This document shows, piece after piece, positions 28,783 to 34,971 of a stretch of DNA of 64,000 bases; positions within the stretch are counted from its first letter, which is position 1; the number at the start of each line of letters is the position of its first letter. Source of the DNA: Paraspadella gotoi (lineage: Eukaryota; Animalia; Chaetognatha); contig CM119271.1 of the NCBI GenBank assembly GCA_051294375.1, positions 11,799,896 to 11,863,895 of the forward strand, in the 5' to 3' direction. The position numbers were made by a program, and so were the translations under genes. Under the pieces are notes generated by a model. It had not been told where the DNA came from. It searched no databases and was given only the letters and a program-made list of their open reading frames with translations.

Positions 28783-28870
28783 GGCTGCAAAAAAACAATC
28801 AACAACCGATAATGTAAATAAAACTAAGTAAATTAACAAATGGATATAAAAACATATCAAAAACGATCTA

Positions 28871-31172
28871 TCACAAAAGCGCCGGCGCCAAATCGGAAGA
28901 CTTGATCTTCTTGGTCGAGGAATTCTCGGCCTTGGCGATTCGGCTCCCGAATTGAATGGCCCTCTTGGCTCGAAAGGCCGTGGACCTGAGCCCGACCTTC
29001 CAAGCGGCCGCCCTTAGGAGAATCTTCTCGCCGACTCCGCGAGGGAATCTCGGGTCTGCCTTGAGGTGGACGGGGAGTTTGTTGACAAAATCCGCGACGT
29101 CTTCGTCCAAATAAGGAAGTCGAGATTCTCTTCCGTGATCAGCGACGACTCGATCGTCACGTCCGAGATTTCGACTCGAGATTCTCTTCACGTCTTTCTC
29201 CATTTCCTCCGCCATCGCCGCCCACCCGCCGGCGCCGAATCGAGCAGCGTGCCGAGAATATCCGCCCAACAGTTCGTCGGCGCCGGATCCTAAAAGAACC
29301 ACCCGCGCTTTCGATCGGTAATCGGAAATCTCGACCGAAGGAGCTGAGGAATCGTTCGTCGGCGCCAACAAACGACCCTCGCCCCGCGCCGCGAACCAGA
29401 TGGCGGTGCCGATGGAATCGTCTAAAATTGTTTTGAGAGGAAAAACGAGTTTAGCGACGAAAGACTTGGATCTAATTCGATCTTCGTTGTCAACATCGAT
29501 GGCGACGAATCTCCATTTGCGTCGAGGATTCAACGCACAGAGTTCCCGCCAAGCCGCCAAACCGCTTCGTCGATCCGGTACGTCGAACGGGGACTCTGTC
29601 CGTCCGTCATAGAAAGGTTCGGCCGCGCTCTTCTTCGAGCGGCTCGTCGACTTTGCGCCGGAGACTTGGAATGCGACGTTGAGGAGGTCGATGGGTCTCC
29701 TTTCCTCCAGCGCCTCGTCCGCGAGGACTGCCAAGAGGGAGCAGTCGACGCCGCCGGAGAAGAGAATGCCGACGTCGGCGTCGGAGGCGTTGGCGACGCG
29801 TTTGGCCACGGATCTTCGAGTCAAATCCAAGAAGCGATCGACGGTGGAGGCGAAATTCGGAACGGCGATCAAGGATTCAACGAATCGAAGATGAGAGGTT
29901 AAGTCGTCGTCTTCCTCAGTAGCAAAAGGCGTCGAGGTCGTGGGCAGCAGGTCTTCAAGCGTCGGAACGTTCTTCTCCACGTCGGCGACGATGGGGTCAT
30001 TCCGCATGACGTCGCTCGCGCGGATTCGAAGGCGAAGAGCGGCGTCGTCCCAACGGAGGTGAGAAAAACGGAGGCGACCATCGAGGTCAGTCTCGATATT
30101 AGACTGAGGATCGGAGTGACAGACGGACAGACGGATTTCATCGATCCAATCCGATCCATCGATCCAGGGAAAGAAGTCGAGGTCCAGGTCGTTGGATCGG
30201 AATGCCTGCGATGGCCGAAGCTTGAAGATGCCTGAAGGAAAAAGTTAATTTTATATCTTAATTGATTATTTAAAACTACTTTTATTATTAAACTACTTAT
30301 TTTAACTGTTGGGTCCCTGGAACATATACTAATGAATGCATAACGATAACTATATTACAACTTATACACGAAACATTCTTTGAGAGTCATCGCATGTACC
30401 GTGATAAAGTTCGGAAAGTTCAGAGTCTTTGGAGATTCCTCTTCACGATTCCGTCTCCACCAATTAGATAAAAAATTTCACATGGGTTACTTGTACTCCC
30501 ATGTGAAATTTTTTTATCTAAAGCATTTAACAATAATTAAATCAGCAACATTCAAATAACGCGATACGACAATATTTCTCATTCTCAACCTTTCCAACCT
30601 TTCGCCGGGACTTCCTGCCATCCCTCGTCCGCCGCGGCGTCCACAGCGGAACAGATCGTCAACCTTCGCTCGCCGGACTCTTCACCACGCCGCAACGACC
30701 AAAGAAGACAGCGACGACCGAACACGTCGCGCCCGAACCACAACGCGTCGGCGCATGCGCGGTAGTAGACGAAAGCGTACGGACCACGAAGTCTCTTTAG
30801 AGATCGTAAGACGAATTGGTCGTCGTCGTCGTCGTCTTGGCGATCGGATAGAAATGTAAACAAAGCGATCGTGTCGCTTTCGTCATCTCCGATCGAAAGG
30901 CCATCGAATATTTCTCCGTTCCACAAGAGGGCGTCTCCCGATGAGTTGGTCAAAGGTTGGGCATCGCTCGACGAGGTACCGCGCATGCGCAGCGTGGCGG
31001 AGAAAAGGCACAAATGGGAGGTGTGGCCATCGAGAAAAACCTCTCTGGAAAAGTCTGGTCCGCGTCGTCGCAATGTTTCGACCAAATTGTTTCGGAGGTA
31101 ATTTTGACAGAGCGAATTCTCGCCGGAAATGCGTTTCTTGCAATCGCAAACGATGCAGCAAATGCCGCACAT
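28871..31172 (-). CDS. ASNSD1: Asparagine synthetase domain-containing protein 1, 2 exons
   Basis: Motifs MCGIC, RRRGPD, LLWNGEIF, ILFSGGVDCS, GSGADELLGGYSRH, RNLGRDDRV and KRAIQFGSRIAK. Confidence 0.95.
30464..30521. repeat. Perfect ~23-bp-arm inverted repeat in the ASNSD1 intron
   Basis: ttagataaaaaatttcacatggg...cccatgtgaaattttttatctaa. Confidence 0.85.
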
Positions 31173-31386
31173 TATTTTAATATACCAGCATCAGATTCCG
31201 AAAATTTTAGATAAAAGTTAGGTGCAGCATCGGGGAAGCTGCAAAAGTTGCAATTTGTGGTCATCCTCTTTTTTTAATTAAAATATTGAAGATGTCGACT
31301 GCAGAAAAAAAAGGGAGAATCAATAAATAACAATCACATTACGAGTCGACAGTTAAGTAAAACTATAACTGGCTCTAAAGAAGGAA

Positions 31387-31932
31387 TCACTTTTCCTCTT
31401 CCGGATCGTACCCCAACATCATGACCCCGGGCACCAACTCCGGCTGCCGCAGCCGTTGCTCCGCCGCGGGATTCTTGGCGTGCGCTGCCATCAACCGCAT
31501 GACGGAATTGTCGAATTCCGTCGGGACGTCGAGTGCGCCCGTCATCCAGTAGTAGAGATCCCATTCGTTGGAAGGTCTGTTAATGAGTTCGTCGTACATC
31601 CGGAGATGTTCCGCGTCGAATCCGGATAAATATTTATCGGCGAAATTGCTGATCAGGATATCGTTCTCGGCCATTCCTCGTTTCCGGCTTTGATAGAGAA
31701 GGCGAGCTCTCATCGTATCTTCGTCTTCTTGTCTCTTCTTCGGCGTCGGAAGAGGAAACTCTTCCTCGTAAGATGCTTGGGTGTTGATAGGCCAATCGGC
31801 GGGGGTGAACACGACAGGGTCGTCGTCCTCTTTCTTGTCGCGAAAAAGTGGAGACGACGAAAAGGGACGAAGGGCGATCGCGGATCGAAGGGCGAAGACC
31901 AACGGCGAATTCGGAACCAAACGACGAATCAT
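31387..31932 (-). CDS. SDHAF2: Succinate dehydrogenase assembly factor 2 (Sdh5)
   Basis: RARLLYQSRKRGMAENDILIS...YDELINRPSNEWDLYYW. ATG at 31932 begins an Arg-rich presequence-like MIRRLVPNSPLVFALRSAIALRPFSSSPLFR. Confidence 0.95.
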   Translation of the reverse strand: MIRRLVPNSPLVFALRSAIALRPFSSSPLFRDKKEDDDPVVFTPADWPINTQASYEEEFPLPTPKKRQEDEDTMRARLLYQSRKRGMAENDILISNFADKYLSGFDAEHLRMYDELINRPSNEWDLYYWMTGALDVPTEFDNSVMRLMAAHAKNPAAEQRLRQPELVPGVMMLGYDPEEEK

Positions 31933-32556
31933 TTCGATGTTTCGCTCTTGGTCGCAGTCGCTTCTTCGAAAAGAGCGTAGAGTTGACCGACCTGTTCGGC
32001 GCGGAACAACTCCAATTGTTGCTCGGAGAGATCGACGCCGAAAGACTGGAAGGCGGTTCGTTTGGAGAGTTGCTTGGAGAGAGTCACGGCGTAGTTGAAC
32101 CACTCGGAGAGAAATTCGTCAGCCTCGGGTTTCGAGCAGGATTTGTGCCGCTTGAATTCGTCTCTGGGAAAAGAGAGAAAAGATTAATACATACTAAAGT
32201 TCACATTAAACTCAAGCATTTAATGAACAAGCTATGCAAGATTCTCCATCCAAAACCTCTGACTTTTGAGTTTCGACAAGCTTACATCCCTCAAACAGAA
32301 TAAGCACATAGCAAAACCCTGCAAAGCCTCAATTCAAACTCTCTCACAGTCTAACTGATCAACTCCCAAAGTACCCGGCTTCCTTATCAATGAATTGATA
32401 ACACTGCCTCCTCTTCACGAGTCACCTGCAATAAGAATCACCCAACACCTTGAACTCGGCCGGGAGTCCTCGATGCAGCCGAAGAATTCTTTTGAAGAGA
32501 CTTCGCACGATTAACACGTGGTTCGGCTGAAAGACTTGCGCTGCTACTTGACTCAT
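31929..32556 (-). CDS. SDHAF3: Succinate dehydrogenase assembly factor 3 (ACN9/Sdh7, LYR family), 2 exons; not in the ORF track
   Basis: Exon 32556-32426 (MSQVAAQVFQPNHVLIVRSLFKRILRLHRGLPAEFKVLGDSYCR) joins exon 32163-31929 (DEFKRHKSCSKPEADEFLSEWFNYA...FGVDLSEQQLELFRAEQVGQLYALFEEAT...SK*). Confidence 0.9.
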
Positions 32557-32823
32557 CACTTAGACTACAATAAAAAGTATAAAACGAATGTAAAAATACA
32601 TTAAATTTAAAATGACAGTCGAAATTGTGAGCGAGAGAAAAAAAATTATACCCAAAAATACAGGAAAGCGACCAAAAAACACACACACAAAAAAGAAAAA
32701 ACCTGGGAAAACCTGGAAAAGAGTAAAAAGAAGAAGGATTGAGAGGCGGAATCCAAGTGAGAGCAGCAAAGGACATTGTTTCGGAGATCAGGAATCACAC
32801 CCCAAAATTGTGAAAGAAATGTT

Positions 32824-33783
32824 TCACGGAAAAACTCGGATGATGAACAACCACATCAAAACAGCCAAGGCGACGAGAGTGACAGTAAATCCCCCTTTGG
32901 CGAAAGTCAACGCCCACCGACGCAGAGCCTCCCCGCGTTTGACGTCGCCGCGGCGGAGCCGCCTTCGCGACGCCCACCACAGCAGCAGCGGAAGAGGAGC
33001 GAGGAGGTTGACGACGGAGCAGAAGAGGAAGAGGAGGATTTGATGCCAGGGGGTCGGGTCTTTGAAGGTCGGGTGAGGGAGAGGTGAGATTGGGAAGTCG
33101 TCGTCGTCCGTATCTTTGAGATTTCTCCGTCGAAGGGATTGTTGTTGTTGTTGTCTTTATCTTCTTCGTTGCCGAAAGGAGTCAGAGATTTGGGCGTCAC
33201 TTCGCCGGCGTCTTTCCCTACGGAATCAGTTTCTGGGACGAAGAGGGCGGCCCTTTAATCTCTCTCTCTCTCTCTCTTTCTTGATACTTTCTCCCCCCCC
33301 CCTCACACTTCTCTCGCCTTTCGCACAGAATTATTCGGTCAATGAGGTTGAGGTGCTGAATCTTCTGTCTCTCTCTCTCTCCCCCCTATTCCCCCTTTTT
33401 CAATCTAATTTCAAGGATTTTCCTCCCTCTATTCTTTCATCTATTCCCTATTCTATTCCCAATTCTATTCCCTATTCCATTCTATACCAAATTCTTTCAT
33501 CTATTCCCTATTCTATTCCCTATTCCTTTCTATTCCCAACTCTTTCATCTATTCCCTATTCAATTCTATTCCCTATTCTTTCATCTATTCCCTATTCTAT
33601 TCCTTATTCTATTCCCTATTCTTTCATCCCCCTCATGTACCGTCATCGTCTTCCCTCGGACGTTCTCCGTCCAAAGCAGACGCGCCACCGGTTGCTTAGC
33701 AACGTCGCGATCGTCGAGGAGCGACTCCTCGGGGTCGTTTCTCCGCGATTCGTTCATCTCGTCTCCGTGGGAGACGCGTCCAT
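32824..33783 (-). CDS. CD225/dispanin-like membrane protein with an acidic N-terminus; apparent indels
   Basis: The last exon encodes DPTPWHQILFLFCSVVNLLAPLPLLLWWASRRRLRRGDVKRGEALRRWALTFAKGGFTVTLVALAVLMWLFIIRVFP*, two hydrophobic segments around a basic GD loop. Confidence 0.55.
33425..33630. repeat. Degenerate (CTATTC/CTATTCCC)n simple repeat in an intron
   Basis: Direct inspection; it explains the IPYS repeats in ORF 33116-33886. Confidence 0.85.
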
Positions 33784-34971
33784 TTTTTTTACCGCGAGTT
33801 CAAAGTCGGATTCGTCGGGTTCAGTTCGATCTTATCTCATTTTTTTATTTCATTCTGTCGAACTTCGAAGTGATTTCCCGGTTTAAAGAACCCACGATAA
33901 TTTTGAAAGTATGTAATAATTAAATGTTTTCCCATAATATAATTTTTTAATTTTTTAATTGAAACCGAATCACGGAAAATCCCAAAAATAAACACATCTT
34001 TATTAATTATTTAGCAAGAACTTCGTAAAACTATATTTATAAATTTTCACTATAGGAATGACTGTGCTAAGTAAGAAAAAACACTTATTTTTCTAAATAT
34101 TTTGGCAATATATTTTTATACATCTGTACAAACTCTATCCATACACATCAGTGAAGCATAAAGAGAAAAACTGAAACATAACAAGCACAAATAAGTAGAA
34201 GGAAGAGAGAGGAGAGAGACAAGACTTAAGGTCAAGAAATAAACTAAAAGTAAAAAGAAAAATGTAAGCACAGAAATTCCTATAGTAAAATTTCATAAGA
34301 TCTTAATATTACTCCCTGTGCTTGATGACGTTTAAAGTGATATTTATTTTCATTTTTCCCTGATTGTCAAAATTGCCCCTCCAACTCCAAGTTCCTTCAT
34401 TTTAGATACGGTTACTGGTTAGTAATGCGGAAGGAGGGCAGATTTAATTTTATAAAATATTTATATTCTCTTTTATATTTGTTGATGTGAGACAACTTTT
34501 AAATAATCCTCGTTTAATAATGAATTTATTGATAAAAATCAATGCAATAATGTTTGTCAGCGCATAATGACTTTTTCTATAAACCACAATCCATGATTCC
34601 CAAAATATAAGAAGAAAATATTCAAAGGAACTGGTCCAATAATTAACCTAATGTCATCCGACGATATAACATGGCAACGAGACGGTTGCAATTATTCGGA
34701 AGAGTTAAAATGTGATAATAACGTGTAATAAATAAAATCCAAGAGTCAATTAGATAAAAAAAAATACGTTGCAACGAAATATTAAATTAATATCACGAGA
34801 CGGTTAAATAATTATTATCATTATTCCCATCAACGACTGGAACCAATTAGAGACTGGAGATAGAGAGAAAAAAAAAGCATGGTGAGCAATATTCGAAGGT
34901 AATATTATTTTACCTAAAAAAAAACACAGATTCACAAATGGGATGAATTTAAGCTCTGAATCTCGGGTCAT

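Follow-up and report, generated by a model that had tools for sequence, protein, structure and literature searches.

Overlapping genes for two Complex II assembly factors

How are two proteins made from a pair of genes when the first ends inside the start codon of the second? This question is raised by SDHAF3 and SDHAF2 in a 64-kb stretch of Paraspadella gotoi DNA (the window), where the SDHAF3 stop and the SDHAF2 start share an ATGA (Table 1). A first-pass annotation had proposed that a spliced SDHAF3 overlaps SDHAF2 in this way, and that one mRNA co-expresses the two pathway partners by stop-start reinitiation; our coordinates for the overlap agreed with that proposal. SDHAF2 flavinylates SDHA, and SDHAF3 aids Fe-S insertion into SDHB (PMC7657662).

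Table 1. Features of the SDHAF3-SDHAF2 locus and its flanks, in positions of the 64-kb window.
Feature	Position	Strand	Properties
SDHAF3 exon 1, coding	32556-32426	-	ATG at 32556; start context GTG-ATG-A; LYR-like motif; PF13233
SDHAF3 intron	32425-32164	-	262 nt; GT-AG; strong acceptor (Y 0.87)
SDHAF3 exon 2	32163-31929	-	TGA 31931-31929; ATG-free in every frame up to the SDHAF2 ATG
ATGA overlap	31932-31929	-	SDHAF2 start 31932-31930 and SDHAF3 stop 31931-31929; 4 nt
SDHAF2	31932-31387	-	181 aa; intronless; basic, acid-free, presequence-like N-terminus; PF03937
U-rich intercistronic stretch 5' of SDHAF3	32823-32557	-	upstream ORF stop 32824; TAG acceptor 32565, 8 nt before the ATG
U-rich 3' UTR/intercistronic stretch after SDHAF2	31386-31299	-	88 nt; strong CAG acceptor 31299
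ASNSD1-like gene, downstream	31172-28871	-	shares the RNA contig, where one of its introns is spliced out

The identity of both products was supported by domain and similarity searches. A Pfam search detected the Sdh5 domain PF03937 in the window SDHAF2 with an E value of 1.4e-22, and named SDHAF2 proteins were among its matches in a protein similarity search, placing it in the SDHAF2/Sdh5 family. The 121-aa SDHAF3 product is assembled from two exons, of which exon 1 scored above the Pfam cut-off for PF13233 (Complex1_LYR_2) and exon 2 below it. Its full-length close relative P0097 shares 46-52% identity with named SDHAF3 proteins, which identifies the family. The first 31 residues of SDHAF2 include five R/K and no D/E, bearing out the earlier description of a basic presequence of its own. 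A C-terminal PGxMMLGYD motif is common to members of the SDHAF2 clade.

Genomic-type fragments of relatives start aligning at the SDHAF3 exon-2 boundary, and the intron position thus appears, from these alignments, to be conserved among relatives. Compared with the intronless SDHAF2 found here, genomic-type relatives are truncated at 113-159 aa, which suggests that SDHAF2 introns are present in other lineages. The 347-aa protein P0260, from a different animal, combines a metaxin/Tom37 domain with the C-terminal portion of SDHAF3, perhaps because two other neighbouring mitochondrial genes were merged in its gene model.

The junction in spliced RNA

Three GT-AG introns are removed in the contigs of run X1, which was therefore treated as RNA although not catalogued as such. 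One X1 contig of 3697 nt spans positions 28800-33108 and is spliced exactly at 32163/32426, so that the 262-nt SDHAF3 intron is precisely the one removed. Over 31200-32163 this contig shows no other letters and no gaps relative to the DNA. The intron is therefore in use, and the ATGA overlap is genuine and not the product of an assembly indel. An indel merging the two genes into a single fused ORF had been named as a finding that would overturn the proposal; none exists in the RNA contig across the junction.

The contig extends across the intercistronic stretches on both sides, and across ASNSD1. Since it runs through both gaps, it indicates co-transcription, and neither proves a single mature mRNA nor speaks against forks created by addition of a spliced leader (SL). 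No X1 contig has a loose end at 32164, 31964, 32565 or 31299; with no loose ends at any acceptor checked, the contigs reveal SL at no site of the locus. Runs X2 and X3 contained no contig aligning to 31200-32660 at 80% likeness.

Just upstream of SDHAF3 lies a small membrane-protein gene (32824-34000) with a weak DUF5671 match (E 0.011). Here RNA contig and DNA differ by seven listed small indels (33681-33975), with a break at 33108-33115 accompanied by a frame shift in the DNA, suggesting misassembly or a second haplotype.

Probable spliced leader sites around the gene pair

Nearly half of chaetognath genes undergo trans-splicing and 18% lie in operons, the longest of nine genes (PMC12460157); these operons are split up by SL trans-splicing (PMC12460157, PMC2481426). 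In the window, 133 of the 267 nt between 32557 and 32823 are T, and acceptor 32565 has U and Y fractions of 0.61 and 0.74. Acceptor 32565 is likely to be the SL trans-splice site of SDHAF3, where we infer SL addition in Paraspadella gotoi, and 31299 is likely to be that of ASNSD1. The 88-nt stretch 31299-31386 contains neither AATAAA nor ATTAAA. A U-rich gap with a YAG acceptor is thus present at both flanking junctions and missing from the SDHAF3/SDHAF2 junction. The earlier remark that neither spacer nor U-rich acceptor separates the two genes is correct, if trivially so, there being no spacer. The flanking gaps and their acceptors fit the operons described for chaetognaths.

Two further acceptors lie inside SDHAF3. 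Among those scored, the intron acceptor 32164 is the strongest (Y 0.87) and the leading candidate for alternative SL addition; the first-pass annotation had overlooked it, and likewise the close animal and algal precedents discussed below. It had instead pointed to an acceptor inside exon 2. AG 31964 is only partly suited to that role: with 70% pyrimidine it ranks in the top 4% of 387 coding AGs, but it is atypical in having A at -3 and 35% U, all five reference acceptors being YAG.

Protein records of relatives provided a trace of the leader itself. The peptide EANFYYFTCL, the exact translation of SL3.2, precedes SDHAF3 exon 1 in P0139 and P0157, and in only these 2 of 183 proteins; the SL3.2 sequence of the chaetognath spliced leader is given in Table 3 of PMC2481426. 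These records indicate that at least one relative trans-splices SL onto SDHAF3 mRNA. The SL peptide was found in 0 of 72 full-length SDHAF2 relatives, a weak absence, since all records that show the peptide come from a single source. In trees of 28 SDHAF2 and 23 SDHAF3 selected rows, with no named chaetognath among them, the window proteins grouped with close relatives (support 100/99 for SDHAF2, on a long branch, and 85/86 for SDHAF3). This grouping and the leader peptide in P0139 and P0157 make a chaetognath origin very likely on sequence evidence too. Identity to these close relatives, from metagenome and run assemblies, is 58-70% for SDHAF2 and 66-75% for SDHAF3 exon 2.

All recognisable genes of the window lie on the minus strand, over ~62 kb (1241-63682). 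This strand survey scanned 25 ORFs, all picked from the minus strand, of which 19 had a Pfam match. The neighbours are an actin-related protein, PIG-U, ALG11, REV3, a GTPase, an HMG-box protein, a rhomboid, an alpha/beta hydrolase and OSBP, followed by SDHAF3, SDHAF2, ASNSD1, a zf-4CXXC (CDCA7-like) protein, RPC34 and BCS1, and then by an Nsp1/Nup62-like protein, UDP-glucose dehydrogenase, an enoyl-CoA hydratase and a WD40 protein. This same-strand run may hold a long operon, the gaps measured being the two beside SDHAF3 and SDHAF2. The ASNSD1 leader (31298-31173) includes a further acceptor at 31239, weaker than 31299, and three ATGs that open short upstream ORFs. These ORFs are too small for the ASDURF protein, known 5' of ASNSD1 in other animals.

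Conservation of the gene pair in relatives

Linkage of the two genes in relatives was assessed from proteins only, SDHAF3 and SDHAF2 records being matched when they shared a source and exactly the same length of longest contig. The test set comprised 54 clade SDHAF3 and 86 clade SDHAF2 records, leaving out five without a length as well as distant or named matches. Half of the SDHAF3 records (27/54) matched an SDHAF2 record; when all lengths were shifted by 1-60, the 120 shifts gave 3.8 matches on average and never more than 9. Chance should therefore account for about four of the matches, probably including P0107/P0011. Across the 25 unambiguous pairs, SDHAF3 and SDHAF2 distances were congruent (Mantel rho 0.56, 0/5000 permutations).

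Matched contigs of transcript type are mostly 1.05-1.4 kb long, about what the two ORFs with short ends would occupy. Those in which both ORFs are complete leave 144-460 nt for all UTRs and any spacer, with the exception of one 6952-nt contig. Neither of the two sources yielded a contig shorter than 900 nt, so a length filter may have been applied there and would conceal one-gene messages. From these matches, SDHAF3-SDHAF2 linkage is probably conserved across arrow worms. A metagenome scan recovered 80 distant SDHAF2 loci (35-59% identity), none from the close clade, and none of them carried SDHAF3 (tblastn, E 0.01). Viral and prokaryote contigs scanned with P0097 contained no relative.

The overlap itself fared differently. 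Conservation of ATGA in related species had been suggested as a test of reinitiation, and it was not borne out: judged at the protein level from the second residue, at which a TGATG-type overlap is not visible, 32 of 72 full-length SDHAF2 relatives cannot begin ATG-A, 22 must and 18 are ambiguous. By this protein-level measure, the ATGA is not conserved and the junction is variable. An extra in-frame Met just before the SDHAF2 start (MM-, MTM-) is polymorphic in some lineages; such starts would be compatible with a TGA only a few bases away from the SDHAF2 ATG.

AUG depletion upstream of the SDHAF2 start

Depletion of ATG before the second ORF is a reported mark of leaky scanning in algal bicistrons (10.1101/2024.07.24.605010). 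Across the 359 nt between the two starts of the window pair there is no ATG in any frame, where 3.6 are expected from the other coding exons of the window (Poisson P 0.028); ATG-free stretches made up 18 of 296 control windows. Absence of out-of-frame ATGs alone is weak (P 0.075 by synonymous resampling). Internal Met is absent from 28 of 29 full-length clade SDHAF3 proteins, compared with 10 of 93 outgroup SDHAF3 proteins over the aligned span, the latter being those of 159 SDHAF3 matches that aligned near full length.

The sole clade Met, at position 10 of P0098, lies in exon 1; even in the outgroup, 43 of the 93 proteins have no Met in that exon. For this reason, the Met data do not separate scanning from SL addition at exon 2. 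Counted as distinct substitutions, Met avoidance was not significant (1/160 in SDHAF3 vs 10/382 in SDHAF2, Fisher P 0.12, the records being related). Start contexts are GTG-ATG-A for SDHAF3 and GAA-ATG-A for SDHAF2, both with G at -3, and ~20 guessed window starts were too rough for a consensus; with a purine at -3 in both, no weakness of the SDHAF3 context relative to SDHAF2 was seen.

How SDHAF2 may be translated

We favour, at a probability of about 0.5, an SL-capped bicistronic mRNA within an operon-like cluster, from which SDHAF2 would be translated by leaky scanning past the SDHAF3 start. The two ORFs overlap and share one spliced RNA contig. SL trans-splicing would cut the precursor at 32565 and 31299, and not between the spacerless pair. 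Since SDHAF3 has no 3' UTR apart from SDHAF2 coding sequence, its mRNA includes SDHAF2 unless it is polyadenylated inside SDHAF2. Some 40S would then bypass the SDHAF3 AUG, ~41-44 nt from the cap, scan the AUG-free interval and start at SDHAF2. The proteins would be imported separately into mitochondria, where SDHAF2 would flavinylate SDHA and SDHAF3 would act in SDHB maturation. On the same model, the ATGA would be the shortest state of a variable junction and not a working part. The ATG-free interval, the Met-free clade SDHAF3, the linkage, the tight contigs, the variable junction and the SL seen only 5' of SDHAF3 exon 1 all fit leaky scanning. Much of the original proposal of bicistronic pathway partners survives: there are two separate proteins, very likely one mRNA and an apparently conserved linkage, while the data do not support reinitiation as the main mechanism.

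Separate messages made by alternative SL trans-splicing are the main competing explanation, which we think less probable. The leader would be added at 32565, giving an SDHAF3 mRNA with SDHAF2 as silent 3' UTR, or at 32164 or a cryptic exon-2 AG, giving an SDHAF2-only mRNA; addition at 32164 would leave an AUG-free leader of up to ~230 nt plus SL, and each precursor would be processed into a message for one protein or the other. SL trans-splicing affects about half of chaetognath genes and separates the genes of their operons (PMC12460157, PMC2481426), SL also resolves operons without intercistronic DNA in Ciona and C. elegans (PMC1488885), and 32164 is the strongest acceptor scored. Such processing would explain the depletion in exon 2, which is ATG-free while the sole clade Met lies in exon 1, but exon 1 is ATG-free here too. 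The contigs are blind to SL forks at this locus, and several SDHAF2 contigs of relatives (908-1005 nt) had no SDHAF3 partner among the records listed. Against this, none of the fetched proteins has SL joined to exon 2, though the SL3.2 frame is expected to read into exon 2, and 24 of 34 transcript-type SDHAF3 records pair with an SDHAF2 contig. Moreover, the shorter contigs are continuous in size (one cluster comprising 936, 969, 980, 1005, 1048, 1080 and 1081), with no second size class.

Termination-reinitiation, the mechanism originally put forward, would have ribosomes stay attached after ending SDHAF3 and begin again at the overlapping AUG; we now regard it as unlikely. The junction does fold better than its shuffles (z -2.2 to -2.7, with -2.2 reached by 3 of 67 control windows), and the MM- and MTM- SDHAF2 starts of some relatives would, at the protein level, fit a TGA near the start. 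The TURBS core motif is UGGGA, 18S-complementary, and exon 2 contains neither TGGGA nor GGGA, hence no TURBS-like core. Viral reinitiation occurs at AUGA and UAAUG overlaps, but once a long ORF has been translated it usually requires a dedicated upstream element (PMC10275272); reinitiation at overlapping ORFs has been reported for a few human mRNAs (PMC3923131). The overlap is not general, those 32 of 72 relatives being unable to have it, and reinitiation gives no reason for an AUG-free SDHAF3, which fits scanning better. A fused SDHAF3-SDHAF2 protein, made by -1 frameshifting or hidden by a sequencing error, is very improbable. The SDHAF2 frame is indeed open for 62 codons 5' of its own ATG (31933-32118), overlapping SDHAF3 exon 2, but the RNA contig is indel-free, SDHAF3 has no X XXY YYZ slippery site, and the presequence-like SDHAF2 N-terminus is kept here and in relatives. 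In addition, 159 outgroup SDHAF3 matches showed no SDHAF2 similarity, and a separate protein search spanning 99-317 aa gave no match longer than 219 aa.

Returning to the bicistronic reading and extending it beyond the window, we rate as somewhat better than an even bet that arrow worms, whose SL trans-splicing can break any operon into single mRNAs, keep SDHAF3 and SDHAF2 on one SL-uncut mRNA phylum-wide, a set protein ratio coupling the flavin and iron-sulfur arms of Complex II assembly at translation. The boldest form of this idea, cellular stop-start reinitiation without TURBS, seems doubtful. Few animal mRNAs are known to encode two assembly factors of one respiratory complex, and this locus would be a Complex II example. 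It suggests that true bicistronic messages persist within the operons of an animal that uses SL trans-splicing, and allows a direct test of what decides whether an operon junction is resolved in the RNA or left to the ribosome. Pipelines that annotate one ORF per transcript likely miss SDHAF3 here, which can mimic gene loss in chaetognaths.

Relation to known bicistronic messages

Bicistronic mRNAs of this sort are already known (sloth1/sloth2, TOM22-SDHAF3, MOCS2), and the SDHAF3-SDHAF2 pairing was not found reported. The literature searched, mostly outside subscription journals, contained no report of such a unit or of a chaetognath bicistronic mRNA, and gene annotations may hold the pair. 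SDHAF2, SDHAF3 and ASNSD1 had no match in three text supplements of PMC12460157. In Drosophila, 159 dicistronic pairs are annotated, many with alternative one-gene transcripts (PMC4528330).

The SL-resolved operons of chaetognaths, Ciona and C. elegans resemble the flanking junctions, with co-oriented housekeeping genes and short U-rich gaps with acceptors (PMC12460157, PMC2481426, PMC1488885). There, however, each gene obtains its own mRNA, whereas here the coding sequences overlap and the upstream gene is without its own 3' UTR. Calicivirus and influenza B TURBS share with the present pair an AUGA stop-start overlap after a long ORF (PMC10275272); unlike those cases, our locus has no recognisable core, an unconserved overlap and an AUG-free upstream ORF. 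Human MOCS2A/MOCS2B are likewise overlapping ORFs for partners of one pathway, on one mRNA and translated by leaky scanning as we propose for the present pair, but the overlap is 77 nt and the products are subunits of one cytosolic enzyme (PMC9607355).

Green algae provide a parallel involving the same protein: SDHAF3 and other LYR proteins are encoded on bicistronic mRNAs for mitochondrial products (PMC7896298, 10.1101/2024.07.24.605010), with ATG depletion before the second ORF and stop/start overlap at some loci (10.1101/2024.07.24.605010, PMC7896298), and reporter tests exist (10.1101/2024.07.24.605010). In contrast to the arrow worm pair, algal SDHAF3 is the second ORF and its partner is TOM22; the portions of these reports drawn on here do not mention an SL context.

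Drosophila sloth1/sloth2 (SMIM4/Brawnin) place two factors of one respiratory complex on a single animal nuclear mRNA, with a near-zero spacer (5 nt there) and a linkage retained in some lineages and lost in others (PMC9681215). Leaky scanning is backed there by reporters (PMC9681215). The sloth factors differ in serving Complex III and in being paralogous peptides of 79 and 61 aa, compared with unrelated proteins of 121 and 181 aa for Complex II. Unlike the arrow worm locus, the fly pair shows no overlap, SL or operon, and its weak Kozak context has no demonstrated counterpart in SDHAF3. Both nonetheless have two factors of one respiratory complex encoded next to each other on an animal nuclear transcript, observed for sloth1/sloth2 and very likely for SDHAF3 and SDHAF2.
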